Shown here in pieces: positions 24,109 to 45,500 of a stretch of 64,000 bases of DNA. Where the stretch lies: IMG/VR virus record IMGVR_UViG_3300043399_000676, one strand, 5' to 3'. Numbering within the stretch: the stretch's first letter is position 1; each line of letters starts with the position of its first letter. Position numbers and translations under genes: made by a program. The notes beneath the pieces are model-generated. The model saw only the letters and a list, made by a program, of their open reading frames with translations. It did not search any database and was not told the DNA's origin. This stretch comes from a virus. Taxonomy: Duplodnaviria; Heunggongvirae; Uroviricota; Caudoviricetes.

Positions 24109-26055
24109 TTAAGAACTCTTACGAACTCTCTGATACCAGTCACACAAACGTCTTACTTGTCTTTCGGTGTATCCTAGACCAATCATTCTGGTCACAAAGT
24201 CGTTGTGCTTCTTCTCAAGTTCTTTATCCTTCTTGCTATCAAAACTGATGACTGGTAGAAGGTCTTCTACTTGACTAAACATTCTCTTTTCAATAACGTC
24301 ACGAAGAACTGAGTAGCTAGTCCAAGCAGGATTCTTTCCACCGTTCTCGGGTTTAGCTCTTGCTCTTAGGCAGAAGTTGACTACTTCGTTTCTAAAATCT
24401 TTTGGATTAGAAATCCCTGCAGGCTTCTCGATCTTCTCAAGCTCTGAGTTCAGCAAAGCCCTATCCATCATTAGTCCAGTATCTGGATCTTTGAATTCAA
24501 TGTTCTGAATCCATGCATCAGCAAAATCTACATAGCGATCAAACAAGTTTTGCCCATAGTCACTATATGATTCTAGATATGCACGTTGAATAGAATTACC
24601 TAGAAACTCTGCATATCTAGTAGACAACTCACTCTTAATAAAATCAAGATACTTTTGTTCACGATCTGATCCAAACTGTTCACGCTTAATTGCGTTCTCA
24701 AGTACAAACATTAGATGTACGGGGTCTGCTGCGATTTCTTCTGGAGTGAAGTTAAAGGTCTGACTTAGAATCTTGTAAGCAAATCGAGTTGAAATGCCAT
24801 CCATACCCTCATCTACACCTGCAACATCGTGATATTCCTGAATAGACTTTGCTTTAGGATCACTGTCACGAATGTTTTCTCCATTGTAGACTCGCATCTT
24901 ACTAAAGAGGGTGCTATTTTCATGTTCACGAAGTCTAGTCAATACACTAAACTGTGCTAGCATTTCGACTGTCTGAGGAGCACAAGGTGCTGCACCTAGG
25001 CCCGAACTCTTGATCATTTTTTCGTAAATCTTAACTTCTTCGTCAACACGCAAGCAATACGGTACCTTGACAACGCATATCCTGTCAAGAAACGCTTCGT
25101 TGTTTTTGTTGTTTCTAAAGGTTTGCCATTCACTTTCGTTAGAGTGGGCAAGAACAATTCCTTGAAACGGTATAGCAGAGATTGCTTCTGTACCGACATA
25201 GTTTCCCTCCTGTGTGGCTGTAAGTAGAGGATGTAGCACTTTGATAGGAGCCTTAAACATCTCTACGAATTCAAGTAGGCCTTGATTAGCTCTGTTCAAT
25301 CCACCGCTATAGCTATAGGCATCAGTATCATTTTGGCTGTATTGTTCTAGTTTACGAATATCAACCTTACCAACTAGGGTACTGATGTCTTGGTTGTTTT
25401 CATCACCAGGCTCAGTCTTCATGACTGCAATTTGCTCTAGTTTACTAGGCATTAACTTAACTACTCGGAACTTAGTGATGTCACCATTGAATTCTTTTAG
25501 CCTCTTCATAGCCCACGGACTCATGATGCTATTGAGATAGCGTCCTTCTATTCCATATTGTTCAAACAAATGTTCTCTGAACTGTGGTACTGAAGAGAAC
25601 AGCCCTAGTGGACTTTCGAATACAGGACTAATCTCACCTGTTTCAGTTGCTAGTGCATAGATAGGGTTGAGCTCCATCAACTCCTTAAGGCGTTCAGCAA
25701 GTGATGACTTACCGCCACCAACTGGTCCTAGTAGGTATAGAATTTGTTTACGTTCTTCTAGTCCTTGTGCTGCATGTCTGAAGTACCCTACAATACGTTC
25801 GATTGCATCTTCCATACCATAGAACTCTTTGAATGCTGGGTACATTCTTACTGTACGATTAGTGAAGATTCTGCTTAGACGAGAATCTTTGCTAGTGTCC
25901 ACTAGCTCTGGCTCACCAATCGCTGCAATCATTCGTTCTGCGGCTGTGGCGTAAGCCATCTTGTCACTTTTGCATAGGTCAAGATACTCATCTATGGTCA
26001 TAGACTTGTATGCGGTCTTTTCAAAATTACTTTTGAATAAATTGGATATTGACAT
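24109..26055 (-). CDS. yeaG: PrkA/YeaG AAA+ serine kinase
   Basis: GLEERKQILYLLGPVGGGKSSLAE, EFVEMFKAPIKVLHPLL, NNEAFLDR. Confidence 0.96.
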   Translation of the reverse strand: MSISNLFKSNFEKTAYKSMTIDEYLDLCKSDKMAYATAAERMIAAIGEPELVDTSKDSRLSRIFTNRTVRMYPAFKEFYGMEDAIERIVGYFRHAAQGLEERKQILYLLGPVGGGKSSLAERLKELMELNPIYALATETGEISPVFESPLGLFSSVPQFREHLFEQYGIEGRYLNSIMSPWAMKRLKEFNGDITKFRVVKLMPSKLEQIAVMKTEPGDENNQDISTLVGKVDIRKLEQYSQNDTDAYSYSGGLNRANQGLLEFVEMFKAPIKVLHPLLTATQEGNYVGTEAISAIPFQGIVLAHSNESEWQTFRNNKNNEAFLDRICVVKVPYCLRVDEEVKIYEKMIKSSGLGAAPCAPQTVEMLAQFSVLTRLREHENSTLFSKMRVYNGENIRDSDPKAKSIQEYHDVAGVDEGMDGISTRFAYKILSQTFNFTPEEIAADPVHLMFVLENAIKREQFGSDREQKYLDFIKSELSTRYAEFLGNSIQRAYLESYSDYGQNLFDRYVDFADAWIQNIEFKDPDTGLMMDRALLNSELEKIEKPAGISNPKDFRNEVVNFCLRARAKPENGGKNPAWTSYSVLRDVIEKRMFSQVEDLLPVISFDSKKDKELEKKHNDFVTRMIGLGYTERQVRRLCDWYQRVRKSS

Positions 26056-26091
26056 GGATACTCCTAATATGTTTTATTTAGTTTACTGCGC

Positions 26092-26877
26092 TCAGTTGAT
26101 GTTTAAAACTAGGCATTTTGCCGCACCACCAGATTTTATGAATTCGCTCAATTCAAACTCATGCACGGTGTATCCTACAGAACGCAATTGATTTGCTACG
26201 GTGGTATTATTGGGAATAAACAAGTGTTCACCTATCCCTACGCAGTTACACCCGAATCTTAGTGCATCGCCTGTAGATACGGTTATACTATCTGAAAAAG
26301 ACCTGTAAATCAAGTCCTGACTACTCTTTGAGAACGCATTTGGGTACCACATTAATCCACCATTTGGCAGTGGACAAAAACAAGTATCCAAGTGATACCA
26401 CCTTGGATCAACTAATTCAAGTACATTGATGTGCTTTCTTAGAATATGTTCTAATTCGTAAGACACTAATCGATTAGTTCTAAACCCAGAACCTAACCAA
26501 TGCCTTCCTTTTGAGTCAACGATATGATCACCTTCTCCCTCATATGGCAAGGCAGGTTGGATCACGTTAAATCCATTGTTTTGAAACCATTCACGAAAAA
26601 TAGGCTCTTCGCCTGTTCGTTCTAAATTTGTAAACCTAGAAAGAACCACTACATCACCATGCACTGAACCCGCGTTTGCAGTAAAAACCAAATCAGGAAG
26701 TCCAGGTACACCTTTGACTAATTTCACAATAGCAATTTTACTCAATGCTTCAAACAAAGCGAACCATCCTGATTGAGCCAAATGATTGTCCACCTTTCCT
26801 ATATGAGATGTCATCCAAGGATTAATATCATATGAAACTTCAAAATGTTTTGGATCACACATTAAAACTGTTTTCAT
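26092..26877 (-). CDS. Amidinotransferase (DDAH/arginine deiminase-like)
   Basis: LPDLVFTANAG, EGEGD, YHLDTCF, KSGGAAKCL. Confidence 0.9.
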   Translation of the reverse strand: MKTVLMCDPKHFEVSYDINPWMTSHIGKVDNHLAQSGWFALFEALSKIAIVKLVKGVPGLPDLVFTANAGSVHGDVVVLSRFTNLERTGEEPIFREWFQNNGFNVIQPALPYEGEGDHIVDSKGRHWLGSGFRTNRLVSYELEHILRKHINVLELVDPRWYHLDTCFCPLPNGGLMWYPNAFSKSSQDLIYRSFSDSITVSTGDALRFGCNCVGIGEHLFIPNNTTVANQLRSVGYTVHEFELSEFIKSGGAAKCLVLNIN

Positions 26878-26929
26878 TAACTCACCTTAAAATACAGCGG
26901 TATTTAGACATCAACGTTTTTAATGAACA

Positions 26930-27160
26930 TTATTTTCGTCGTTTACGCCAAGTGTACGCGATCCCATCTGGACATAATCCATTCTCCACAGAATCAACAC
27001 CAGTCTTTCCTATTTGATTAGGGTTCTCGCTTACCATTGTTACGAAACTCATTCCTCTCTTACGAAAAGTTTCTGTTACTGAAAGTGCATCACTTAACAC
27101 ATCACAATCCCAATTATAGCACTTATTATCAATTGGATCAGTGTAATAAACCTTATACAT
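26930..27160 (-). CDS. Hypothetical protein
   Basis: 76 aa ORF preceded by TAAATA. Confidence 0.7.
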   Translation of the reverse strand: MYKVYYTDPIDNKCYNWDCDVLSDALSVTETFRKRGMSFVTMVSENPNQIGKTGVDSVENGLCPDGIAYTWRKRRK

Positions 27161-27172
27161 ATTTTATTTAGT

Positions 27173-27248
27173 TGGCGCGCCTCGAGGGAGTCGAACCCCC
27201 ACAAACTGGTTTCGAAGACCAGGACTCTATCCATTAAGCTAGAGGCGC
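27173..27248 (-). tRNA. tRNA-Arg(TCG)
   Basis: Cloverleaf, loop CT-TCG-AA, CCA. Confidence 0.92.
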
Positions 27249-27250
27249 AA

Positions 27251-27436
27251 TTAAAGGACTAGCATTGCCCAGCAAATAAAGAAAATAATTACGAGAACAA
27301 TCTTCCAAACTGGAATACTAAAGTTAAACTTAACTGTTTGCTTCTGAGGAGTAAAGTTACTATTGAATACTGGATACCTCTTCTGATTACTAAATTTGAC
27401 TTGCTTAGTTTTACGACCAAGGTTGCGAGTTTTCAT
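27251..27436 (-). CDS. Small basic protein with C-terminal membrane anchor (start re-called)
   Basis: SD AGGA before MKTRNLGRK. Confidence 0.5.
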   Translation of the reverse strand: MKTRNLGRKTKQVKFSNQKRYPVFNSNFTPQKQTVKFNFSIPVWKIVLVIIFFICWAMLVL

Positions 27437-27693
27437 TCTATTCCTAAAGCTGAGTTGTTGGAATGGTGTCAAGGTTTTCGTACTTGACACTGGGTCGAGG
27501 GATGTCCCAGACGGCAGATGCATGAACCCACCTAATATAGTATGCCACCGTAACGTCAGGGTGGTACGCATCGTCGCTCTTTGGCGGCTCCTTCCTCGGT
27601 TTTGTTACCATATTGAAACACACTAGGCGCACACACAGCGACTACAACTGCACCACCAGCTTGAGTCCTCATAGTGTTAAGTGTGCTTCAATA

Positions 27694-27819
27694 TGGTAGT
27701 TGGTGCTGATCTCCAACTTGATTGCACTGCTACGTCCTGTTTCCTGACGCTACCCTAAACGATGGTCTGGGCCTGCAATCCGCATAACCAGCTACTGCGT
27801 ATCAGCCTACGCATTTACC
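27694..27819 (-). ncRNA. Unnamed CCA-ending structured RNA with kissing loops
   Basis: GGTA...TACC-A ends; GCGTA-GGCTGA-TACGC and GTTGG-AGATCAGCA-CCAAC loops are complementary. Confidence 0.65.
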
Positions 27820-27893
27820 ATATTGAAACATATTCTGTCGCCGTTTTCGCATACGCTGGTAACGACCAAGACCTCAAAGAATATGTTTCAATA

Positions 27894-28029
27894 TGGTGCC
27901 AGTCTTTCCTGGCTGTCATCTAAGTTTCTTTTTGATACTATTGCCTGCCCACGGATTTAGCTAGCTTACCGTGCTGCTCATACTGGACGCAACTTAGAGA
28001 AGAGACCGCTGCTCTTACTGGCTTTCACC
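27894..28029 (-). ncRNA. Unnamed CCA-ending structured RNA
   Basis: GGTG...CACC-A ends; AAGAG/CTCTT, TCTAAGTT/AACTTAGA, CACGG/CCGTG and GCCAG-GAAAGA-CTGGC helices. Confidence 0.6.
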
Positions 28030-28262
28030 ATATTGAAACACACTGGTACTTCCCTTCAAAGGGGCAGGAAGTTTATGGCTGTTGCCCCACTCCGATACCA
28101 ACCAATGTGTTTTAATATAGTGTCACTCTCCTGACCACTTTTAACGGAGGGGGTAGAGCCTCGAGTGACTTGTCAAAGACAGGCTTTATTCCTGGTTGCA
28201 ACCATATTGAAGTAGACTGTTAAGTGGCCGTTTGTTCAACGGAATTCTTTTTCGCACTCAAT

Positions 28263-28436
28263 CTACTTTAATATGGTAACGCCTTGTTCTTCTAACTTCT
28301 TCCTGAACTCATTCCTTGCATGAAGATACCATGCCCAGTTACCCATGAATCCATCTATGCTTGTAGGCTTATCCAAATTAGCGTAATACTCTTTAAACTG
28401 CTTTTCAAACTCGGCGAGCGTTATTGTTTTGTTCAT
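28263..28436 (-). CDS. 57-aa hypothetical protein (not in ORF track)
   Basis: MNKTITLAEFEKQF...GVTILK; SD GAGGT; last codons form a hairpin arm. Confidence 0.65.
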   Translation of the reverse strand: MNKTITLAEFEKQFKEYYANLDKPTSIDGFMGNWAWYLHARNEFRKKLEEQGVTILK

Positions 28437-28457
28437 AGATACCTCTTGTTATTAGTC

Positions 28458-28631
28458 TGGTGTCCACGAGTCTTGTTACTCTCCGTATGCATCCGGATTT
28501 CTCGCAGTACGTGGTCTAGTCATAGCCTCTGCTTATGTTCAACGACCCGCCGGTGTCATTGCACCTTATCAAGTATCGTGTATAGTTTCCGCTTCATCGA
28601 CTACCGCTGACATACAGATCAGCTTCACACC
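28458..28631 (-). ncRNA. Unnamed ~175-nt CCA-ending RNA with long-range pseudoknot
   Basis: GGTGT...ACACC-A ends; loop TCTGTATG pairs with CATACGGA near the 3' end. Confidence 0.6.
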
Positions 28632-28714
28632 ATATCAAAGCATACTCGGGTCACGAAGTTTCCGATTTCAAACCCCCGATTCTTACGGACATATGCTTTG
28701 ATATGATGTCAATA

Positions 28715-28743
28715 ATTATACATATCTCTTATATGTATGTCAA
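28715..28743 (-). promoter_or_regulatory. sigma70 promoter for the ncRNA block
   Basis: TTGACA-17-TATAAT, just upstream of hairpin 28631-28705. Confidence 0.85.
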
Positions 28744-28744
28744 G

Positions 28745-28821
28745 TGGTACTTCCTAGAAGAATCGAACTTCTGACCTCTTGCGTGTCATGCAAGCGTTCT
28801 TGACCACTGAACTAAGGAAGT
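28745..28821 (-). tRNA. tRNA-Val(GAC)
   Basis: Loop AT-GAC-AC, CCA. Confidence 0.9.
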
Positions 28822-28827
28822 AGAGTT

Positions 28828-28903
28828 TGGTAGGACCTGCCAGGTTCGAACTGACGACATTCTGCGTGTAGGGCAGACGCTCTACCAACTGAGCTAAGGT
28901 CCT
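28828..28903 (-). tRNA. tRNA-Val(TAC), C at position 33
   Basis: Loop CC-TAC-AC, CCA. Confidence 0.88.
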
Positions 28904-28910
28904 TTATTTT

Positions 28911-29000
28911 TGGCGGAGAAGGTGAGATTCGAACTCACGGTAGAGTTTCCCCTACGCTAGTTTTCAAGACTAGAGCCATAAACCACTCGGCCACTTCTCC
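28911..29000 (-). tRNA. tRNA-Ser(TGA)
   Basis: Loop CT-TGA-AA, long variable arm, CCA. Confidence 0.93.
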
Positions 29001-29007
29001 TTATGTT

Positions 29008-29081
29008 TGGTGCCCCAGGAAGGTTACGCTCCTCCTACTCATCTTTACCAAAGATGTATTTTACTATTAAACCACAGGGGC
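29008..29081 (-). tRNA. tRNA-Thr(GGT), atypical T-loop AGCGTAA
   Basis: Loop TT-GGT-AA, CCA. Confidence 0.82.
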
Positions 29082-29100
29082 AACTCCAATAAATATTGTC

Positions 29101-29637
29101 ATGAATTACTGCAATAAACTTAACCTTGATCTTTCTCCCGTCTCTAGTACTTTCGATCTATATTCTATAAAGAAAGAACACACCGTATTAGATAAGTCAG
29201 AAATCAACCCTGAAATTCAATCATTTTTATCGGAAAGAAACATTTCCATAAGCTGGGCAGAAATTTTCTATAGAAAACCATTTGATATTGTCAATATTCA
29301 CACCGATGATCTAGGGGGAGACATTGTTAAAATCAACTGGATATACGGCGGAGAAAACAGCACAATGTTTTGGTTTGCACCAAAAGATCCTTCTATTGTA
29401 AAGATTCCATTTAAAACGGCTATAAACAGCAACTACTTGTACTACAAACGAGATGAAGTCAATCTTGTACACAAAGAACAACTACGAGGAGCTTACCTAG
29501 TTCAAGTAGGAGTCCCGCATGCAGTTATAAATTCAAAAGCAGAACGATATTGTATCAGCCTAGTTTTACAAAACCAGCATAATCAATTTTTATCTATGCG
29601 CGATGCTATCTCTATTTTTTCTGATCTGATTGTTTAA
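29101..29637 (+). CDS. Cupin / 2OG-Fe(II) oxygenase-like protein
   Basis: IHTD...INW...VGVPHAVIN...R facial-triad pattern; TAAATA upstream. Confidence 0.7.
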   Translation: MNYCNKLNLDLSPVSSTFDLYSIKKEHTVLDKSEINPEIQSFLSERNISISWAEIFYRKPFDIVNIHTDDLGGDIVKINWIYGGENSTMFWFAPKDPSIVKIPFKTAINSNYLYYKRDEVNLVHKEQLRGAYLVQVGVPHAVINSKAERYCISLVLQNQHNQFLSMRDAISIFSDLIV

Positions 29638-29713
29638 TGGTGCCCCCTTCTGGTTACGCTCCAGACTCCCATGCTCTTCAGGCATATGCTTTCACTAGAT
29701 TAGCTTAAGGGGC
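29638..29713 (-). tRNA. tRNA-Phe(GAA), atypical T-loop AGCGTAA
   Basis: Loop CT-GAA-GA, CCA. Confidence 0.85.
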
Positions 29714-30316
29714 ATTAAGTTTTTGCCAAGTTTTTTTATTTTCATGAACAGCTAGTTCACACGTTTCCTCATCATAGATTTGTTCAGGTGTTATATACCC
29801 AACACTTTCCTTAGTCATTAACCATTCTGTTAATGAGGGTGTTCCATAAGGAAAGGTCTCATCGAGTTTAGGAACACAAGGTGACTGGCAAAACTTTAAG
29901 AAGTCAGAAGTTTTATGTTTTTTGGCAATAATCACAAAGTCATCAATCATCGTGGTTTTCATTCCTCGATTGTAGAAGTATAATCCTCTTCTTTTAGGAA
30001 ATATCATATCTACTTCATCAAACAAGGAATACAAATGATCGAAATCTACTTTCCACCTAATATCAAAATCAGTATAGATACCGCCAAATTTGTCTAACAC
30101 CGAATACCTTGCTAATTGCAACTTATGAAACAAGGTGCTTTTCAAGTACAATTCTTTGATATGCGGAAAGTTCTCTAAAATATCTGAGTCTTTCCATAGA
30201 ATAAATCCATAAGAAGGATTCATTGCAATAGTGTTTCTATAGTTACCGTAAAAACTATCTGGGGTAGAATTCTCTCCTACCCAAATGTAATGAACTAAGC
30301 TGTTAAATCGTTTCAT
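29705..30316 (-). CDS. GT32/OCH1-like DXD glycosyltransferase (start re-called at MKRFNS)
   Basis: HYIWVG, ARYSVLDKFGGIYTDFD; longer ORF-track start runs through a tRNA. Confidence 0.8.
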   Translation of the reverse strand: MKRFNSLVHYIWVGENSTPDSFYGNYRNTIAMNPSYGFILWKDSDILENFPHIKELYLKSTLFHKLQLARYSVLDKFGGIYTDFDIRWKVDFDHLYSLFDEVDMIFPKRRGLYFYNRGMKTTMIDDFVIIAKKHKTSDFLKFCQSPCVPKLDETFPYGTPSLTEWLMTKESVGYITPEQIYDEETCELAVHENKKTWQKLNAP

Positions 30317-30329
30317 GTTGTATATATGA

Positions 30330-30406
30330 TGGTAGTGACGGCGAGGTTCGAACTCGCTTCTTTCAGCCTTATGAGGACTGCGTATTTCCACTAATACTAC
30401 GTCACT
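30330..30406 (-). tRNA. tRNA(CAT), elongator Met or Ile2
   Basis: Loop CT-CAT-AA, paired 1:72, CCA. Confidence 0.85.
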
Positions 30407-30494
30407 TTAACGTACTTGACCATATTGAAGTACACTATTTTCATATCCTTTCGGTCCTGCTGATCAGTGTTTGCCAGGATAATGCACTTTAATA

Positions 30495-30569
30495 TGGTTG
30501 GGGCAGGGGGACTTGAACCCCCAACTTACCGGTTAAAAGCCGGTTACTCTACCATTGAGTTATACCCCA
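30495..30569 (-). tRNA. tRNA-Lys(TTT)
   Basis: Loop CT-TTT-AA, CCA. Confidence 0.9.
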
Positions 30570-30575
30570 TCATAG

Positions 30576-30664
30576 ATCGTATTGTTGATTTACCGTGCCA
30601 ACTCTAGACCTACGATGGGATCTAGAGCGACACTACATCTTACCTCGTTTCATGTCAATCTCCT
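30576..30664 (-). other. Mini-ORF MKRGKM* followed by an H-type pseudoknot
   Basis: SD AGGAG, ORF 30633-30653, stem CTCTAGATC/GGTCTAGAG, loop ATCGTA pairs with downstream TACGAT. Confidence 0.6.
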
Positions 30665-30672
30665 TAAAAATT

Positions 30673-30746
30673 TGGTAGCCCCGGGAGGTAACGCTCCTCC
30701 GACTCCGCGTTATCAGCACGGTGTTATACTTTTTAACTAAAGGGCC
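30673..30746 (-). tRNA. tRNA-Ile(GAT), atypical T-loop AGCGTTA
   Basis: Loop CT-GAT-AA, CCA. Confidence 0.85.
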
Positions 30747-30756
30747 AATTATAAAA

Positions 30757-30816
30757 CAGGATGCGCTTTTCTTTTTCCAATAAGAAGTAGAATTAAGTTT
30801 GCTGAATGCATCCTAA
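30757..30816 (-). ncRNA. CAGCAA-family RNA (copy 4)
   Basis: AGGATGC-ATT-CAGCAA...TTCTT-ATTGGAAA-AAGAA...GCATCCT-G. Confidence 0.75.
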
Positions 30817-30912
30817 AAAGGGCACCGGTTACGCTTTCCGGCGCTGCTTGTACACTCAATAAATCATGAGTAGTTCACAGCCGTTGCTGTTGCGTCTAGG
30901 CAACTTTCGTTT

Positions 30913-30987
30913 TGGAGCGGGTAGTCGGGTTCGAACCGACGACCTTCTGCTTGGCAAGCAGATGCACTACCACTGTGCTATACCCGC
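30913..30987 (-). tRNA. tRNA-Gly(GCC)
   Basis: Loop TT-GCC-AA, CCA. Confidence 0.93.
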
Positions 30988-30994
30988 ATATTCT

Positions 30995-31078
30995 TGGTGC
31001 CCCAGGAGGGATTCGAACCCTCACGCCTCTCGGCACTGGTTTCTAAGACCAGCGTGTCTACCATTCCACCACCGGGGC
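30995..31078 (-). tRNA. tRNA-Leu(TAG)
   Basis: Loop CT-TAG-AA, variable arm, CCA. Confidence 0.93.
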
Positions 31079-31087
31079 AAAAATTCT

Positions 31088-31163
31088 TGGGGTGACTAGT
31101 CGGATTTGAACCGACATCTATCGGAATCACAATCCGAGGCTCTACCGTTGAGCTATAGCCACC
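31088..31163 (-). tRNA. tRNA-His(GTG)
   Basis: Loop TT-GTG-AT, G-1:C73, CCA. Confidence 0.93.
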
Positions 31164-31277
31164 ATCGATTACCATATTGAAGCACACTTGTAGGACTTGA
31201 ACCTACCGACTTTGCTCTAAGGGCAAAGCTATGCACCACCCATATCAGCGCGGCCTGCGCCTTAGTGTGCTTTAATA

Positions 31278-31353
31278 TGGCTACGGTGGAGGGACTTGAA
31301 CCCCCAACATCTGGTTTTGGAGACCAGGGTTCTGCCAATTGAACTACACCGTA
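31278..31353 (-). tRNA. tRNA-Trp(CCA)
   Basis: Loop CT-CCA-AA, CCA. Confidence 0.92.
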
Positions 31354-31364
31354 ATAACTTAAAT

Positions 31365-31427
31365 CACTGTCTAGGGATCGAACCTAGTCGAGTTGCGCGC
31401 CAATCTCGTACTACCAAGTACACAGTG
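31365..31427 (-). ncRNA. 63-nt minimal tRNA-like element without CCA
   Basis: CACTGT/ACAGTG, GTAC-TTGGTA-GTAC, CGAG/CTCG and CTAGG-TTCGATC-CCTAG. Confidence 0.6.
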
Positions 31428-31433
31428 AAACTT

Positions 31434-31508
31434 TGGCAGGGGTACTAGGAATCGAACCTAGACTAACGGAATCAAAATCCGTTGTGACTACCATTACACC
31501 ATACCCCA
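31434..31508 (-). tRNA. tRNA-Gln(TTG)
   Basis: Loop TT-TTG-AT, CCA. Confidence 0.92.
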
Positions 31509-31514
31509 ACAATT

Positions 31515-31589
31515 TGGCTCCGGAGGCAGGGATCGAACCTACGACCAATTGATTAACAGTCAACTGCACTACCGCTGTGCTACTCCGGA
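31515..31589 (-). tRNA. tRNA-Asn(GTT)
   Basis: Loop CT-GTT-AA, CCA. Confidence 0.93.
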
Positions 31590-31599
31590 ATAAACAAAA

Positions 31600-31663
31600 C
31601 AGGATGCCTTTTTACGGTTTAGATTAGAAGTCTAATGTATAAAGTTTGCTGAAAGCATCCTAA
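31600..31663 (-). ncRNA. CAGCAA-family RNA carrying an isolated Arg(TCT) anticodon stem-loop (copy 5)
   Basis: AGGATGC-TTT-CAGCAA...TTAGA-CTTCTAA-TCTAA...GCATCCT-G. Confidence 0.78.
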
Positions 31664-31666
31664 AAC

Positions 31667-31749
31667 TGGTGTGTGTTACGGGATTCGAACCCGCACTTCA
31701 AGGTTGTTAGCCCTGCGTCGTGATGCCCTAACATTTTGACCAAACACAC
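31667..31749 (-). tRNA. Atypical tRNA-Val(AAC)-like with 18-nt D-loop
   Basis: GTGTGTT/AACACAC-ACCA, loop CT-AAC-AA, canonical T-arm. Confidence 0.7.
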
Positions 31750-31755
31750 ATAAAC

Positions 31756-31870
31756 TGGCGCCGCTGCTAGGAATCGAACCTAGATATCTTCCTTGACATG
31801 GAATTGTAATTGCTGAACGTAATCTTGACAGATTCGCTTTTTAAGCGTCCTACCATTAGACGACAGCGGC
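31756..31870 (-). tRNA. tRNA-Asp(GTC)-like with a 41-nt CAGCAA-module insertion (copy 6)
   Basis: Removing 31802-31842 gives a 74-nt cloverleaf with CTTCC-ATGTCAA-GGAAG, G73 and CCA. Confidence 0.75.
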
Positions 31871-31876
31871 TAAAAC

Positions 31877-31953
31877 TGGTAGCGAGAGGAGGGATTCGAA
31901 CCCCCGACCTTCGGCTTATGAGACCGACGAGCTAACCACTGCTCCACTCCGCA
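31877..31953 (-). tRNA. tRNA-Met(CAT), initiator-like
   Basis: TGCGGAGTGGAGCAG start, 1:72 mismatch, loop CT-CAT-AA. Confidence 0.88.
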
Positions 31954-31960
31954 TCAAATT

Positions 31961-32037
31961 TGGCGCCTCGTACGGGACTTGAACCCGTGGCCTTCTGCGT
32001 GACAGGCAGACGATCACTCCAACTGATCCAACGAGGC
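31961..32037 (-). tRNA. tRNA-Asp(GTC)
   Basis: Loop CT-GTC-AC, CCA. Confidence 0.93.
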
Positions 32038-32046
32038 AATAATAAT

Positions 32047-32124
32047 TGGTCTGGGTAGCAGGATTTGAACCTGCAGCCTCCGAGTTCCAAGCCCGGCCGT
32101 CTACCAGGTTGACAATATACCCAG
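32047..32124 (-). tRNA. tRNA-Pro(TGG)
   Basis: Loop CT-TGG-AA, CCA. Confidence 0.88.
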
Positions 32125-32133
32125 ATGATTATT

Positions 32134-32208
32134 TGGTACTCGGTACGGGAGTTGAACCCGTCTTTCCAGATTGAAAGTCTAGCGTCCTAACCGATAGACG
32201 AACCAAGC
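32134..32208 (-). tRNA. tRNA-Glu(TTC)
   Basis: Loop CT-TTC-AA, CCA. Confidence 0.9.
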
Positions 32209-32215
32209 ATATTTT

Positions 32216-32303
32216 TGGTGGGTGATGTAGGAGTCGAACCTACTAAGCCCTGAGGGCAACGGGGTTACAGCCCGCCACTACACTCCAACGTAGTCGATCA
32301 CCC
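32216..32303 (-). tRNA. tRNA-Tyr(GTA)
   Basis: Loop CT-GTA-AC, variable arm, CCA. Confidence 0.88.
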
Positions 32304-32309
32304 GAAGTT

Positions 32310-32384
32310 TGGTACAGCATAGGGGAATCGAACCCCTCTTCCGACCGTGAAAGGGTCGTGTCCTAACCGATAGACGAATGCTGC
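32310..32384 (-). tRNA. tRNA-Glu(TTC), second copy
   Basis: Loop CT-TTC-AC, CCA. Confidence 0.9.
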
Positions 32385-32392
32385 ATTAATAT

Positions 32393-32471
32393 TGGTCTCG
32401 GAGGTGGGATTCGAACTCACGATCTCCTGCTCCCAAAGCAGGCGCTTTAAGCCGGACTAAGCTACACCGAG
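32393..32471 (-). tRNA. tRNA-Pro(TGG), second copy
   Basis: Loop TT-TGG-GA, CCA. Confidence 0.9.
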
Positions 32472-32971
32472 ATAAGACCATATGTTTGTTGGAACAACAA
32501 TTTCACTTCTTGAAATGATTTATTGTGCCAACAAGCTTGAATTATTTCTCTTCGACTATTACCCATAGAACTCACTCGATGGATTTCCTGTGCATTCAGT
32601 AGGTAAATGTCATTTTCATTTGCTACAAATTCATTGCATTTAGTTAGATTTTTTAAATCAAACCAATTATTTTCTGACTCTACACTTGACGTATAGAATT
32701 CAGTTACTCCGCCATTGCCGTTAACATAAACGTTCAAGTTAACATTGACGTTAACGTCTAGATGAGCAGCCGTTTCTTTTCCTAGTATCTCAACATAAGA
32801 CAATGAATCAGGTCGCATGATAGAGAAGAACTTGGCATCAAAAATTCTGTAAGGCTGCAAGAGATTATAATACAAAAAATCTCCCAAGTTATACTTGAAT
32901 GCACCTTTACTTAACTTAGATGAAAGAAACCTTTCATTAATTGGAAGTTGAAGTTTTAGAAAATCATTCAT
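32462..32971 (-). CDS. Cupin / 2OG-Fe(II) oxygenase-like protein
   Basis: AHLD...LNVY...YLLNAQEIHRV...R; stop lies inside the tRNA-Pro 5' end. Confidence 0.7.
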   Translation of the reverse strand: MNDFLKLQLPINERFLSSKLSKGAFKYNLGDFLYYNLLQPYRIFDAKFFSIMRPDSLSYVEILGKETAAHLDVNVNVNLNVYVNGNGGVTEFYTSSVESENNWFDLKNLTKCNEFVANENDIYLLNAQEIHRVSSMGNSRREIIQACWHNKSFQEVKLLFQQTYGLISV

Positions 32972-32979
32972 AATTCATT

Positions 32980-33055
32980 TGGAGTCGGCAGTAGGAGTTT
33001 AACCTACCTAAATCGGGTTTGCAATCCGATGCATAAGACGCTCTGCCATACCGAC
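32980..33055 (-). tRNA. tRNA-Cys(GCA)
   Basis: Loop TT-GCA-AA, U73, CCA. Confidence 0.88.
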
Positions 33056-33062
33056 ATTGTTT

Positions 33063-33137
33063 TGGTGGACCTGGGGAGGATCGAACTCCCACTAAAGGCT
33101 TGCAAAGCCCCTGTGCTCCCATTATCACTACAGGCCC
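33063..33137 (-). tRNA. tRNA-Ala(TGC)
   Basis: Loop TT-TGC-AA, G3:U70, CCA. Confidence 0.92.
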
Positions 33138-33143
33138 GATGTT

Positions 33144-33232
33144 TGGTGGGTGGTGATGGTAACGCTCCACGAGGCAACTTCCGATCTTAACAATGCCGAC
33201 GGTTTTACAGACCGCTGACCGGGGCACCACCC
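33144..33232 (-). tRNA. D-armless tRNA-Tyr(GTA)-like RNA
   Basis: GGGTGGT/ACCACCC-ACCA, loop CT-GTA-AA, enlarged variable arm, T-loop AGCGTTA, no D stem. Confidence 0.65.
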
Positions 33233-33655
33233 TTATTCATTAACGCACTGTTTCCAGTGCGTGTAGTAAAACACACTATCCTTTCTGAGTCTCCCGTTTT
33301 AACCTAGTGAAATTATCTTTCTAGCTTTCGGCTCAGTGGTAATGTGCTTTACTACAAGACAGTTTTTACGCATTCGTGTTATCGCCACGAACTTATCATC
33401 CCTGTCTCCGCCCTCGTTAGTAGCAAGATGTTTTAAGTGCCTTGCAGGACCGCGTTCCCTGTACACACTTTGCGATTCAACAGACACTTAAGGTGTCCTC
33501 TCGCCCTTAATTAGTTTGACTAATTTCAAGTAGCGTTCTACTTTCGCACGAAGCAAACGTTGCCGTTGCTCCTGCGTCAGAAAACAATCTTCAAATCGTC
33601 TAACTTTGACTTGTTCAGTATACTCTATTTTTCACTCCTTTGCAAGTAGAAAAAC

Positions 33656-33687
33656 AAAAACCCTGGGATTTTTAGTTCCAGGGTCTT
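33656..33687 (-). terminator. Intrinsic terminator of the putative attenuator
   Basis: AAGACCCTGGA-ACTAAAAAT-CCCAGGGTTTTT followed by GTTTTT. Confidence 0.8.
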
Positions 33688-33712
33688 TTGAGTGTGTGAA
33701 CGTAATTTTTAG

Positions 33713-33844
33713 TTACATTCGATCTCCTAAGACCCTTTTACTAGGTTCACGATCGGCATGTGCATTAATCGCAAACCAGAGAGGTGACATATTTGACACC
33801 TGCTTGGAGCAGCAATTATAATACTTGCCTGACTTCGTAAACAT
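33713..33844 (-). CDS. 43-aa putative attenuator leader peptide containing all 20 amino acids (not in ORF track)
   Basis: MFTKSGKYYNCCSKQVSNMSPLWFAINAHADREPSKRVLGDRM*; 3' codons form the antiterminator; weak SD AAGGGA. Confidence 0.7.
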   Translation of the reverse strand: MFTKSGKYYNCCSKQVSNMSPLWFAINAHADREPSKRVLGDRM

Positions 33845-33886
33845 TTTCTTCGTTAAATCCCTTCGTTCAAATTTCTCAGTTTTGCT

Positions 33887-34175
33887 ATTCTAACACTGCT
33901 CAACATTTCTGTCAAGCCTTCTGATAACTTATTTATTCCTTCGAACAAAATTTGCTACAGAAGTTATCAGTATATAACTTATTTATTCCTTCGTCAACCT
34001 CTTTTTCAATTATTTTTCAATTTTGGGCAAATTGATCAGAAGTTGATTTTCGTATTATGCATTACTTATTTACAGATGTCAAGCCTTTGTTTAAATTTCG
34101 GAAAAACTTTTACCTAGACTTGATTTGTCGTAGCTGCATTTTGAGTAGTATAGCCCCGAGCAGGTTTGATGTCAA
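33887..34175 (-). promoter_or_regulatory. Four tandem sigma70 promoters pointing into the leader and tRNA array
   Basis: TTGACA-17-TAGAAT 33887-33915; TTGACG-17-TATACT 33969-33997; TTGACA-17-CATAAT 34054-34082; TTGACA-17-TATACT 34147-34175. Confidence 0.85.
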
Positions 34176-34211
34176 CCTCGCATAAATAAGTAATGATTTG
34201 GAGACTTATAA

Positions 34212-35216
34212 ATGCCTGACTTCCCAGAATCTGGAAAATTTTCGATAGCGGATCTAAACGTAGTGTTGGGCTATCCAGCAGGAAGACAAACAAAACTAAG
34301 TGAGTCTGACGTTAGGGTTCGGCTAATGAAGCGAGAAGCGAATACTGAGATTCGGTTAGCAGCGGATTCTTATAGAAAAACCTTACACATAACCTCTATT
34401 ACACCAAACGGCAACTTAAGAAGTATTGCAACAGGAAACGGATGGAACAGTAGCACAAAATTAGAATTTGTTATTGATGGCAACGGTGCAGGTACATATG
34501 GGTTTTATTCCACTTCTTCCGGAACACCGGCACTAATAGTAAACGGCACTTACCCAAATGGGTTATTCTTAAACAATTACGGATACATTATTGGTAAAGG
34601 TGGTGACGGCGGAGCAGGAGGTAGTCCGGCAAATTCATCAAGCGATGGCGGACCAGGTTCGTCTGGAATAGGAGGAGGCATTGCAGCATACTTCGATTCA
34701 CCCTCAAAAATTTATGTCTGGAACATCCCTTCCCCTGGTTTGGGAGGAGTCTTGGGTGGGGGAGGTGGCGGGGGAGGTGGCGGCACTGGTGGGAGACAAC
34801 TTTATGTCGAAGGGAAGAACAGTGCTACGCAAGGAGGACTAGGTGGAGGAGGTGGAGGAGGTTTATCCACTAACCCTTCTCCATCCGCAGGTGGTGCAGC
34901 CGGTGTCAATAACGGAGGAACAGGTTGGATAAATGGGACAGCGGGCGGCGCGTCGAACACAGACCCGCAAAACCCCACACCGGGGGTCGGCGGCACTGGT
35001 GGCTTCATAAACTCAAATAACTATGGTGGCAACGGCGGGATTGGTGGGGGAAGAGGGAGTGCAGGCATTTCCGGTAACACTGGTGTTGGTGGAGCATATT
35101 ATGGTGGTGGTAGTGGCGGTGGAGCAGGGGGAAGCTTTGTTAACTTTGGTGGTACTACTCCGACTGCAACTAGATTTTTTTATTCGATCGGCAACGTTGC
35201 CGGTCCTATATCATAA
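34212..35216 (+). CDS. Glycine-rich adhesin-like virion protein (T-even gp38-like)
   Basis: NNYGYIIGKGGDGG then polyglycine tracts; TAAATA and SD GGAG upstream. Confidence 0.7.
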   Translation: MPDFPESGKFSIADLNVVLGYPAGRQTKLSESDVRVRLMKREANTEIRLAADSYRKTLHITSITPNGNLRSIATGNGWNSSTKLEFVIDGNGAGTYGFYSTSSGTPALIVNGTYPNGLFLNNYGYIIGKGGDGGAGGSPANSSSDGGPGSSGIGGGIAAYFDSPSKIYVWNIPSPGLGGVLGGGGGGGGGGTGGRQLYVEGKNSATQGGLGGGGGGGLSTNPSPSAGGAAGVNNGGTGWINGTAGGASNTDPQNPTPGVGGTGGFINSNNYGGNGGIGGGRGSAGISGNTGVGGAYYGGGSGGGAGGSFVNFGGTTPTATRFFYSIGNVAGPIS

Positions 35217-39514: not shown

Positions 39515-42500
39515 TTAAACTGCCGGTGGTGCAGGGATTTCAGTCAAATCTGTTGTCCATGCAAACGTTGCGACACCTGAAACTCCTGCATTTTGATCAT
39601 TTGAATTGTTTGCAAGTGCACCAACCCCGTATGTTGTTCCCATTGCAGGTATCCTGCCAGTTGACCTACCTGCTACTGGTTTTATTCTTGACGTTTCCCA
39701 AGATATTGCATTGTTGAAATAATGATATCCCATTAAACCACCTGTTCCTGCTTCTTCAGGGGCAACAATATAAATACCGGGCACTGGGTTTCCATCTTTG
39801 TCTACAGAAGAAGTCTGTATGACTTCTACCTTTCCACCAAGACCGCCTGCTCCGCCACCACCGCCACCACCGCCACCATCATATATACTTGATCCAAGTA
39901 TTGGGTATCTTGCTACAATATTTTGCTGTCCGTCTCCCTCTTGTCCAGCTTGTATTAGTGTTAATGTATTTTGCAACGCTGAGTTTGCATCGGTGTAATT
40001 GCCGTTCTTGTTTAGGTCTAGTGCAATACGAGCCGAATTTCCTGCGCCACCTCCACCGCCGCCTCCAGGGGCGATTAGCATTGGTTGCCATGTCAAACCA
40101 TTATCAGTCGAGTATTCTACTGATGTTGATCCGCCACCTGCTCCACCTCCACCAGAGCTTGCACCTGAAGTATCCCCCGGAGCACCTCCCCTGCCACCTA
40201 TGTTATATCCGCCTGCAACTGGGACGCCTGCATGAACATACTCACGGCCAGTTTTGCCACCGCCACCGCCTTGACCAACTTTCATTCTTATTCGCTTGGT
40301 GTTTGCTGTTGCAGGAAGCTTTGCCATTGCATACCATGTACCGCCAGCGCCACCGTTACCACCAAACCATCCACCGTCTTGGCTTCCAGCGCCACCTCCT
40401 GCACCAACTAAATTAAACGCTATGTTAACTGCTTCAGTAGTCAAGGTGAATTCTTGCCCAGTTGGAGAAACAGATGTTCCTTGACCTCGGTATATAGTTA
40501 TCGAAGTGTCCGATATGATAACGGTCGAGCTTACTGCGATTATAGGTCCAGTAATATTGTTCTTTCTAATGTAGATAAAGAAGTTTTCGCCACCTTCAGT
40601 CGTTCTATCTGCGGCAATTGTTCTTGTTATTGTACCTAGACCATTTACGATTGATACTTCCCCATTTATATTTTTGTCACCAAAGTCGTCCTTGTCTACA
40701 CCAGTTGACGTAGACCAATATAGTGTACCGGAGTATGCAGGAGATCCATATACGTTTACAGTAAATACAACCGAACTTCCTTCGCTCACAAAGTCAACAG
40801 AAGGTGTAACTGTTGTGTAAGAAGTATCAACGATTGTCTTAGTTGAAGTAAACGCAGATGTAATTGGGACTGTCATCGCAGCATCCAAATACAACTGAAT
40901 CTTGAAGCTTTCTAATCTAGTATCATAAGTTGTGTCGTCACCTACTATATCATTAACCAATGCCAAAGTACCTGTGAATGTCTGATTGTTTATAGCAATC
41001 TTACCAGACAGCACGTTTCCTGCAATATCATCGATTGTAGGAGCGGCATATGCTCCGTCTGGTAAAATTCTCCAATAATACTCAGTCGCATTAGGAACGT
41101 TAGAAGTAGTTATCGTGACGTTAACTGTTTCGCCCTCATTATAAACATCCTTATCCGTCGCAATAGTTACATGCACATCAAGGATCGTGACTTCCGCTGA
41201 AGTAGCTACAACCGGGTTAGAGTCAGAGCCAAGTCTGAAGTCAACCACAAACTTTCTATCTCCTGCTGCCTTTACCCAATCGTAAGGTAAACTAAACGTT
41301 AGACTACCTGATGTACCAGAAGTAACAAGAGTTCCTTTCAAGCTAGATAATCCCAATGTAGCTGGTGTAACAGTTCCTGCACCAGTAGTTGGTCGTACAG
41401 TATAGTATACAGTTGTCCCAGAAGGTATATTAGTTGTAGTTAATCCAAATGTAATTGACTGCCCTTCTCTTACTGAAGTTGGGCTTCCAACTAACATACT
41501 AACATCCTGTATTGAAGTTACTGCGAACGAAGGAGGAGTAGAGTATGTTATACCATCGACTGTTGCGGATGCCACAAATCTATATACCTCTGGTATTTCT
41601 ACTTGATTATCGTAAGCTAGATTAACTGTAACTGAGGCTGCGTTTGAATTCACGACTGTAGTACCGCTAAGTGTAGCTGGAGAAAAATCAGCACTGTTTA
41701 GTGTAGTTGTCCCTGGTGTAATTACCCAGTTAACCGTAGTTCCATTTGGAATGTTAGTGGTTGCCAAATTGTATGTTGCTGTTTCGCCCTCTTTTGCTGT
41801 TGCAGTGTATGACGTAACTTTGATCTCTCTATTCTTAACTGTTACTAGCGGACTAGTACCAATCAATGTCCCAGATGCATTGTTTAATTTAACATTTAAA
41901 TACAAAGTCTCATCAACTTCTGTGTCCAAGTCAGTCGCAATTACCTTAGTAAGAGTGAAGGCCCCGGATGAGTTAACGTTGAATGTTCCTGCCATGACTC
42001 CATCAAACAGATCAGCGCCAGAAGTAGTACCAGTTATGTACCAATAGAGAGGAGTACTAGTATCTATGTTACTGGTTTGAATACCAAACGATATGGTTTG
42101 TCCTTCGTATATGGTGTTCACTGAAGGAGTGATTGCACAAGTAACATCCAATATTGTTATTGGTGTTATCGAACGAATCAACGTACCACCTTGACTAGTG
42201 TACAAGTTAACTGCTAAAGTTTCTGAACCTTCAATTAAGCTGTCATTCAATGCAGTCAACGTAAACGACGCTGCTTTATTTGTGAAGTTTAACGTTCCTG
42301 AGGTTGGTGTTACATCAGTAGTATTTGTGGATTCCCAATACCAGCTAGAAGCATAGGAATTTCTTACTGTTATAGTTGCAGAGTTTCCTTCTTTTATCGA
42401 AGGTACTGTTGCTGGCTCAACAATAATCGTAGTATCTTTAACCGTTATAACTCCACTAGTCAATTCAGGTAACATTACAACTGACTGTGCATTGTTGGCT

Positions 42501-45500
42501 GTTACTCTTAACTGAACCTGCATATCACCTTCAATTACTGTATCAGTTTTGAATGTGATTGGAATGTTCACTGTTGCAGGAGTTCCACTAAACGTCCCGC
42601 TTCCACTTATCGCACCAGTAACGTGTTCAGTTAAATTCAATGATGCATCAGTAGAGCCAGTTTTTATTAGACTCCAAGAATAAGTAGTCGCATTACAGTT
42701 GGTTGCAGTCAACTGGAATGTTACTGTGTCACCTTCGTTAACAGTTGTAGCAGTGTTAGGTGTGATTGCGATTGACCTGTCTGCGATTGTTATGTCTGAA
42801 GAACTTCCAATAACAGTACCTGAAGCACTACCTATTCTAACATCAACTCTAAATCTTTCATTACCCTCAAGATCATTATCAAACTTGATTTGTCTAGTCA
42901 ATGCGACCGTTGAGCTAGTAGTCACGTTAAATGTACCTTCTAGCCCTTCGATGACATAATCAAATTTGTCCAATGATCCGAATGTTGGTTCAATTTTCCA
43001 ATACAATGTAGTTCCTGCTGCAATACCAAACGTGTCAAATGTAAGAGTGAATGAATCTCCCTCTGCGACAGTCGTTGGTACTGGTTGTTTCTCAACAACG
43101 TTGACATCAGAAATTGTAACCGTTGGGCAAGGAGCGCTCAACGGTATCAATGTTCCTGATCCAGCTGGATTGCTAGTGTACAAGTCAATCACAAAGCTTT
43201 CCGTATTCTCTCTGGATGAATCATATGCTGAAGTTAACGTAAACGCCCCTGTTCCATTTGTTAGACTTAGGGTTCCCTCAATTGCTGTCGAGAAATCGCC
43301 AGAATTGACTGTACCGGATACTGTTCTAACTTTCCAATACACGCTTGCTAATGTTGTATCAGCAGTTACAGTAAACGTAACTGATTCATTTTCAGCAATT
43401 GCAGTTTTGTTGGTTTGAATAAGTATAGACTTGTTCTTAACCGTGATAACACCGCTATTTACAGTAGGTGAAACTGTAGTTCCTTGTGTATTCTTTACTG
43501 TTACTGCAAGTTGAACTTGCATATCCCCTTCATTGATTGAGTCTGCCTTAAATTGCACAGGGACGTTGACAGTAGCTGAATTACCACTAAATGTTCCGCT
43601 TCCACTTACTGCACCAGTAACATGATCAACAAGATTCAAGGTAGAACTAGTAGATCCTGTTTTTACAAGTGACCAATTATATCCAAGTCCGTCACAATTA
43701 GCAGCAGAAATTTGGAATGTTACTGTGTCACCTTCGTTAACGGTTGTTGCAGAACTTGGAGTTACACTGAACGATCTATCTGTCATAGTAACTTCAGGTG
43801 AACTTCCAATAACAGTGCCTGAGGCACTACCTATTCTAACATCAACTCTAAACTTATCGTTATTATCTGACTGGTTATCAAATGCAATCTGTTTAGTCCA
43901 AGTGCAAGTTAAGTCGGATGCGACAGTAAATGTACCCGCTAATGTATTTGGAACAAAGTCAGAACCGTTGACTGTGCCTGATGTAGGAACTACTTCCCAA
44001 TATAATGTTGTTCCAGCAGTTAAGCCAAACGTATTGAATTTTACGTTCAATGGCTCGCCTTCAGCAACAGTGATTGCAGATATTGGATCAGCCACTACAT
44101 TGACATCAGAAATTGTAACTGTTGGACAAGGAGCATTCAAGGTTATTAATGTACCTGATCCTGCCGGGTTACTTGTATACAAATCGATCACGAAGCTCTC
44201 AGTGTTTTCTCTTGACGAATCATATATTGAGGTTAGTGTAATTGTACCACTACCTGATGTTAAGTTTAGTGTGCCTTCAACTGCTCCGGCAAAATCGTTT
44301 CCATCGACTGTACCAGATACTGATCTTAACTTCCAATATACACTACTAACACTAGTTCCTGTTGTCACAGTAAAGGTTACTGATTCATTTTCTTTGATTG
44401 CAGTCTTGTTAGATGTAATAGTGTAGTTTACATCAGTGATTGATATTGTTCCAGTAGAAGCATTTATCACAGTACCTGCAATTGTAGTTGTTGCGTCTAC
44501 TACAAACGTCTCTGTGCCTTCGAATGAATAATCTGAGGCAATTGGAAGATTAAATGTTGCAGCGTTACTGTTGATCTGAACATTACCTGTTGATCCATTT
44601 CCAAAGTCAGCAGAAGTGATTCCGGTAGAAATTCCTCTAACCGACCAGTCTACTACCGTTCCATTTGGTATGTTTTGGCTAGCCAATGTAAAGGTTAGAG
44701 TGCCACCTTCTGATACGGTTGTGCTGCTTGGTGTAATTGTCAACCAACGATTTAGGATAGTTACTGCCTCTGTTGTGTGCAACAATGTTCCAGTTGCTGA
44801 TCCTAAATAAAAGCTAACAGTAAATGTCTCAGAAGTCTCGCTATTGCTATTATCAAGTGCTGCTCTTCTTGAGAAAGTTCCGATGTTATTATTTACTGTA
44901 ATTGATCCTGATAGTTTTCCATCTGTAAAATCAGAGCCAGTGATGTTTCCGCCATTTGCTACCCAAAATAGTGTAGTTGGAGATGGCAAGTTGGTAGTAG
45001 TTATATCAAATACGACTTCATCACCCTCTAGAATTGTAGTTGCAGATGCGACAGAACTAACAGTTACATCACCTATTGTTACTTCTTGACTTGAAACTAA
45101 TAAAGTTCCACCTGATGAATTAAACAAGTCAACTACAAATTTATTATCTACTTCATTTGTTGCAGTATCAACGACTGGTGTTAGAGTAAACGAACCTGTG
45201 CCTGCAACCAATGTTATACTACCAGTCATCGAAGAACTAAAGTCAGCCGAAGTAACTGCGTTTGCACCAGTTGATCTTACTGACCAAAAGTAGGTAGAAG
45301 TAGGATTAGAACTTGAATTAACTGTAAACTTTACGTTTTCACCTTCTCTTACCAAATTCTTATCAGCAATAATGCTAACGGCAAGATCAGTTATGCTTAT
45401 AACTGGGCTTGTTGCAATAACAGGTCCTGTACTTGGATCAACTAATCTTACGTCAACGACAAATTGTTCTAATCCTTCAGAATTAGAATCAACTTTCATT

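Follow-up and report, generated by a model that had tools for sequence, protein, structure and literature searches.

Classical amino acid attenuators (trpL, hisL, leuL, pheL and the multivalent thrL and ilvGMEDA) sense one to three amino acids via codon runs and control enzymes. In attenuators of the trp type, a protector helix leads to termination when the leader is untranslated. T-box riboswitches sense the charging of one tRNA, which they bind directly and without translation, and control termination. In mycobacteria, according to the available text of PMC10274678, efficient translation of the whiB7 (wblC) uORF leads to a Rho-independent terminator and stalling to an antiterminator. The M. 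smegmatis uORF codes for every amino acid except cysteine (19 of 20) and is enriched in alanine, and its coding sequence is described in the same text as determining which shortages are sensed (PMC10274678).

The leader considered here precedes a tRNA array in the window, a stretch of 64,000 nucleotides from the Caudoviricetes record IMGVR_UViG_3300043399_000676. It resembles the whiB7 uORF, as far as that is described in the cited text, in its broad amino acid content and in its predicted polarity from stalling to antitermination. Unlike the whiB7 uORF, which has a bacterial transcription factor as target, it is followed by a phage tRNA array and not by whiB7/wblC, so that the products would be the sensed molecules, and its composition follows the tRNA block, the two systems being compared by design only. 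By this analogy, the whiB7 uORF appears to be the closest known system, and the phage leader would work likewise while belonging to neither the whiB7 nor the trp-type family. The features of the locus, all on the minus strand, are as follows.

34147..34175, minus: P1, sigma70-like promoter TTGACA-17-TATACT (11/12, consensus match only)
34054..34082, minus: P2, sigma70-like promoter TTGACA-17-CATAAT (11/12, consensus match only)
33969..33997, minus: P3, sigma70-like promoter TTGACG-17-TATACT (10/12, consensus match only)
33887..33915, minus: P4, sigma70-like promoter TTGACA-17-TAGAAT with TG (consensus match)
33713..33844, minus: leader ORF, 43 codons plus TAA (ORF list, amino acid counts)
33746..33844, minus: predicted sensing zone, codons 1-33, where a ribosome would leave the antiterminator arm free (footprint folding)
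33724..33736, minus: predicted antiterminator 5' arm, codons 37-41 (folding; family core plus covarying extension)
33698..33720, minus: predicted hairpin inside the antiterminator, spanning the stop codon (folding)
33678..33692, minus: predicted segment used by both folds, as 3' arm of the antiterminator and 5' arm of the terminator (folding)
33650..33687, minus: predicted intrinsic terminator hairpin and U-tract (folding, -15.5 kcal/mol)
33617..33645, minus: weaker promoter-like site TTGCAA-17-TATACT, 3' of the terminator (9/12)
33236..33610, minus: structured spacer RNA of 375 nt from attenuator to tRNAs (z -7.8)
27173..33137, minus: tRNA array, all 20 amino acids (ARAGORN plus Tyr cloverleaf)

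A first-pass annotation of this DNA had proposed that four tandem promoters feed a 43-codon ORF with all 20 amino acids in its first 33 codons. This anatomy was borne out, with promoter sites matching at 10-11 of 12 positions and the 20th amino acid (Glu) reached at codon 33. Each amino acid has one to four codons in the ORF, and within codons 1-33 twelve amino acids occur once. The end of the P4 -10 box lies 42 nt from the ATG; the leader is not leaderless, and its Shine-Dalgarno sequence is weak, as had been noted before. When 714 phage proteins were sampled (36,585 windows), 0.07% of the windows showed complete coverage within 33 residues; among 23,925 shuffles of the leader DNA that were free of stops, 42 did so. 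The cut at codon 33 was a post hoc choice of the first-pass annotation. Complete coverage becomes less exceptional over all 43 codons, being reached by 1.1% of the protein windows, by 675 of the 23,925 shuffles and, under uniform sampling, by 6%. The cut, though post hoc, coincides with the boundary given by the independent footprint-folding model described below.

The leader peptide had no match in a Pfam search and no homologue in a word search, and blastn of the leader region against cultured phages returned matches to tRNAs only. A close relative in sequencing run X3 carries five substitutions in the ORF. Two of them are silent, the other three affect amino acids that the leader has in more than one copy, and no amino acid is lost from it. 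The ORF also contains a perfect antisense promoter (TTGACA-18-TATAAT, 33793-33822, plus strand), which opposes the four promoters and points at plus-strand genes from 34212. It was rejected as a family feature, since none of the 33 other leaders reaches 11/12 and the -35 box is altered in a relative.

For the RNA from 33885 to 33640, the minimum-energy fold is the antiterminator with its inner hairpin (z -6.4, 0/200 shuffles). Folded alone, the antiterminator has -21.5 kcal/mol and the terminator -15.5 kcal/mol (0/200 shuffles for the latter). Positions 33687-33680 are common to both, making the predicted folds mutually exclusive, and the earlier proposal that the antiterminator sequesters the 5' arm of the terminator thus agrees with the folding model. 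The terminator hairpin, 33650..33687 on the minus strand, was absent from the list of an automated terminator scan of the window. Folding also predicts a long hairpin that spans codons 1-34.

The effect of a ribosome was modelled by equilibrium folding with a footprint that masks 9 nt past the A-site codon. With a stall at codons 1-33 the outer stem of the terminator was mostly unpaired, codon 28 being the exception (about 0.5), and with a stall from codon 34 on it paired with a probability of 0.8-0.9. The modelled change-over at codon 34 falls one codon past the 20th amino acid, and its direction is consistent with the earlier suggestion that stalling would lead to read-through. Without a ribosome, the window leader folds to the antiterminator and the terminator has a probability of 0.15 in this equilibrium model, with mixed results for homologues.

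The locus has the arrangement of an attenuator: a short ORF lies between promoters and the genes to be regulated, cognate control codons lie upstream of the antiterminator arm, and a mutually exclusive antiterminator and intrinsic terminator are predicted, with a covarying helix extension. A short ORF with cognate codons, alternative helices, a U-tract terminator and stall-induced read-through are shared with trp-type leaders. Unlike these, the untranslated window leader is predicted by the equilibrium model to fold to read-through, where a protector helix would be expected, and unlike the trp, his, thr and ilv type, it has no runs for one to three amino acids. A search of the leader region against Rfam matched no leader family. 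The proposed sensing of tRNA charging and control of termination are T-box-like, and an Rfam search of 26000-35000 gave no T-box match to E 1, the Stem I specifier loop and T-box bulge being absent from its results.

Nineteen amino acids of the tRNA array were identified by ARAGORN at relaxed score. The 20th, Tyr, at 32217-32303, was read from its cloverleaf fold and is labelled Gly by ARAGORN. The terminator had been placed directly upstream of the array, and this did not hold: the first tRNA called by ARAGORN (Ala, 33063-33137) begins 518 nt past the U-tract, with the structured spacer between. The spacer matched no Rfam family, and pieces of it recur in other metagenomes. A possible Tyr-like element at 33143-33235, between terminator and first tRNA, gave no cloverleaf on folding. 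Among the tRNAs, hairpin elements delimited by CCATATTGAA and its complement recur at 27560-28210, 30430-30500 and 31165-31280 (minus strand); ARAGORN at relaxed score reads one of them as a tRNA (anticodon TTA), and they possibly represent an unknown RNA family. Two atypical tRNA-like genes (31759-31870 and 31670-31749, minus strand) include one of 112 nt and one read as Val with anticodon AAC. The 3' side of the array adjoins genes for a PrkA/YeaG-family ATPase and an amidinotransferase-like protein on the same strand (24109-26877, minus), which may be reached by read-through from the array. Two giant repetitive ORFs of 4,447 and 3,020 codons are located at 39515-52858 and 54924-63986 (minus strand).

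In a search for relatives, the motif consisted of the RNA arms only and contained no peptide information. It matched 55 IMG/VR stretches and at least 118 of about 270 metagenome stretches, with full flanks in 80 of the 118. A same-strand tRNA lay within 1,200 nt in 62 of the 173 listed matches; in 55 of these 62, and not in the other 7, a leader ORF stopped at the arm. Among 40 distinct tRNA-linked leaders of 31-47 codons, which form a handful of related groups rather than 40 independent cases, 11 contained all 20 amino acids and 16 at least 19; for real protein segments of 31-47 residues the corresponding fractions are 0.04-2% and 0.6-13%. Broad coverage in divergent homologues had been set beforehand as a check, and it was found. 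The alternative pairing is kept as well. In 43 sequences the antiterminator helix grows inward past the motif by 2.56 bp versus 0.87 bp with swapped partners, through T-A, G-C and A-T pairs that covary, while outward extension was not above chance in the swapped-partner test.

A loose version of the motif was rejected, its matches being mostly noise (8 of 64 parts scanned), and retrieval by neighbour gene yielded 23 loci with at most one tRNA each. A scan of GTDB returned 22 motif matches, 4 with a tRNA behind. Leaders with tRNA blocks were seen on three bacterial MAG contigs (L328, L331 and L339); the first two resemble phage families and are probably binned phage DNA.

Cultured phages carry such leaders with unrelated core sequences. 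Neighbour gene and tRNA matches led to 15 named phage records, and inspection of their tRNA regions showed leaders in five: RsoM2USA (2), SCTP-2 (4), LR756502 (4), phiCbK (2) and CcrColossus (2). In all five the tRNAs are split into blocks. In the regions viewed, no leader-terminator was seen before the arrays of EscoHU1, PPSC2, GEC_MRC, Chloris, P59, BRock, Daffodil, AS4, DLP_6 and XacN1 (a re-reading of Chloris, P59 and EscoHU1 covered the first tRNA block only), or before some tRNA blocks of the five leader-bearing phages. With 10 of 15 named phages lacking one, such leaders are not the rule for every phage tRNA array and do not run all of them.

Every one of the nine amino acids encoded by the first RsoM2USA block (P, C, E, Y, L, W, S, H, V) occurs in the body of leader 1, with Thr in addition, and in leader 1 of phiCbK all seven block amino acids (P, T, K, L, H, A, S) make up 95% of the body. 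At relaxed score, ARAGORN reports tRNAs for Thr, His and Ala in phiCbK, and for Thr and Tyr in CcrColossus, which the accessible text of the genome paper lists as absent (PMC3556154). The leaders of both phages contain the amino acids of these extra tRNAs, and the codons of these Caulobacter phage leaders match strongly.

In order to compare leaders with the tRNAs behind them, we assembled 34 leader-block pairs. One is the window's, named phages supplied 14, and the remaining 19 come from 17 of 20 IMG/VR stretches. Two of the stretches left out had no usable leader or motif match (G026, G031), and the third (G032) repeats G008. Seven leaders were chosen by eye and 27 were found by rule. A block ended at the next leader or at a 3-kb gap, and the match score was the mean correlation of leader amino acid counts with tRNA presence in the block. 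The score for the 34 pairs was r 0.398 versus a null of 0.022 +/- 0.038 (0/100,000 permutations), and the match held in the 27 rule-found leaders (r 0.316), in the 17 found by motif only (r 0.177), and in 18 rule-found leaders, one per family (r 0.331). The true pairing ranked first in 7/7 genomes with several leaders, which include two homologous pairs and hence amount to about five independent cases (about 2e-4).

The match is specific for frame and position. It was absent from frames +1 and +2, from upstream DNA and from the last six leader codons, and strongest 13-18 codons ahead of the stop; the antisense frame gave a weak signal (476/20,000). Stops interrupt the frames other than the leader's in 23-31 of the 34 cases. 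Leaders that use more amino acids tend to precede blocks that cover more (Spearman 0.68), and at the codon level the block anticodon reads 226 of 339 informative codons versus 193 expected; the window leader taken alone has no codon-level match (7/16 versus 6.7 expected). Absences match as well: D, E and Y are missing from leader body and block alike in G013, as are C, D, E, L and Y in its homologue G005. Poor fits were G008 (r -0.37) and G020 (r -0.50), the blocks of which may be cut by the 3-kb rule or by contig ends. Overall, the sequence of the leader peptides is not conserved and their composition tracks the tRNA block.

The window's 20/20 leader is thus the limiting case of the leader-block rule: since the array covers every amino acid, so does the leader, which mirrors it. 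The original idea of a general tRNA-depletion sensor stands in respect of broad coverage and is refined to a match with the tRNA set behind the leader, other phages using subsets. The leader system is real and conserved, and is probably an attenuator matched to the tRNA array.

The ORF, antiterminator and terminator quite probably constitute a ribosome-coupled transcription attenuator, which on the folding model would open the tRNA array upon slow decoding of any type of codon. Host RNA polymerase would start at the four upstream promoters, with a ribosome translating the leader behind it. A ribosome at codon 34 or beyond would mask the arm 33736-33724, so that the terminator would form and transcription stop. 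If the ribosome were held at codons 1-33 by an uncharged, cleaved or degraded tRNA, or if it never loaded, the antiterminator would form first and the array be transcribed. New tRNAs would then relieve the stall, closing a feedback loop. In phages with several tRNA blocks, each block would be given a leader in its own amino acids. We infer that the leader is translated, that its polarity in vivo is the modelled one, and that the trigger is tRNA cleavage, host RNA decay or starvation. The earlier wording that tRNA synthesis is switched on agrees with the modelled direction of read-through; its on/off sense goes too far, as the possible promoter at 33645-33617, recovered here with a 9/12 match (a score reached by 13% of shuffled segments), may supply a basal level, making the switch perhaps a boost.

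Across the family, the equilibrium model gave a divided result. Among 32 leaders folded with a ribosome footprint, 19, including the window's, switch in the direction of stall to read-through, 12 keep the terminator at every ribosome position, and 1 was mis-assigned; in 2 of 34 leaders the script found no terminator. All four LR756502 leaders are among the 12 that do not switch, as is leader 2 of both phiCbK and CcrColossus; these 12 may yet switch when folding is modelled kinetically. A U-tract terminator is missing from one CcrColossus leader. A partner-swap duplex test on 13 non-motif leaders gave -10.9 versus -8.1 kcal/mol (38/100,000), which is weak support, several of these leaders having been found by an antiterminator rule and the arm lying outside some windows. 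Single codons cause weaker stalls than the runs of trp or his leaders. In 14 of 34 leaders the ATG lies 5-10 nt past a -10 box. A 10-12/12 promoter stands right behind the terminator in 6 of 33 leaders versus 2.7% in shuffles, so the tRNAs of these six can be made without read-through.

It is unlikely that the same switch senses general coupling of translation and transcription, as affected by ribosome supply, antibiotics or host shut-off, with the spread of amino acids being incidental. Such coupling would fit the ribosome-free fold of the window leader, since any uncoupling would lead to read-through, and also the missing codon-level match in the window; it does not call for a leader-block match, yet one is seen in the leaders of partial blocks, confined to the reading frame and to codons upstream of the arm. 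The same match weighs on a slightly less probable arrangement, in which the terminator ends a separate small transcript (a peptide or sRNA) and tRNA transcription relies on internal promoters and on the one behind this terminator. The site at 33645-33617, the strong sites behind the terminator in 6/33 leaders and the 518 nt to the first called tRNA speak for it. The peptides would then hardly be expected to track the tRNA block while unconserved in sequence, a stand-alone terminator needs no competing helix, and in 8 of 33 leaders at most 39 nt separate the U-tract from the first tRNA (scanned from the U-tract, so that a promoter inside the hairpin is possible).

That the output is opposite or different, with slow decoding cutting tRNA output or the switch acting on precursor processing or stability, is improbable: the 12 of 32 leaders without an equilibrium switch and the CcrColossus leader lacking a U-tract terminator would suit it, whereas the 19 that switch do so as stall to read-through and the matched codons sit upstream of the arm. 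Least probable is a leader RNA that stays untranslated and binds tRNAs directly in T-box style. The weak Shine-Dalgarno sequence of the window leader and the long hairpin over its codons 1-34 are compatible with this; the match nevertheless occurs only in a single open frame, which runs from an ATG to a stop at the arm, with other frames broken in 23-31 of 34, and the Rfam search found no T-box.

For ribosome-coupled attenuation of tRNA genes, a wider reading covers large phages of unrelated hosts, and we lean slightly towards it: a feedback circuit in which the leader is the table of contents of its block, detecting which tRNAs are cleaved, degraded or kept uncharged by the host and having just those transcribed. 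The window would then be the all-in-one version, with one leader for all 20 amino acids. A full-text literature search, with preprint supplements and most subscription papers outside its scope, gave no account of leader-peptide control of phage tRNA genes, and term searches of the text available for PMC2965389, PMC13015707, PMC3556154 and PMC11555353 did not find it. In PMC11555353, tRNA rescue is credited to a strong promoter, and 'attenuat' is absent from the main text. The class of uORF attenuation is already known, also in near-pan-amino-acid form (whiB7); within this scope, no publication was found that applies it to tRNA genes or describes the leader-block match.

Why phages carry tRNA arrays has been an open question for decades, as stated in the available text of PMC10264068. 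Phage tRNAs are described, in the parts of these papers available, as counter-defence against tRNA-cleaving immunity (PMC11555353, PMC10264068, PMC11464382), which supplies a likely purpose of the leader-array system, the replacement of tRNAs destroyed by the host. A sensor wired to the array means that the tRNAs answer a shortage felt at the ribosome, favouring depletion and counter-defence over static codon compensation. In phages with block-matched leaders, ribosome stalling likely raises tRNA production, and the tRNAs that a given phage monitors can be predicted from its leader sequence. Reporters for tRNA-cleaving defence systems could be built on the 33-codon sensor with its full set of amino acids. 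Since phiCbK, a model phage with a genetically tractable host, has the same design, the question is testable now. If the wider reading is true, the circuit would be an inducible counter-defence against tRNA-targeting immunity, with tRNA genes regulated by their own decoding.
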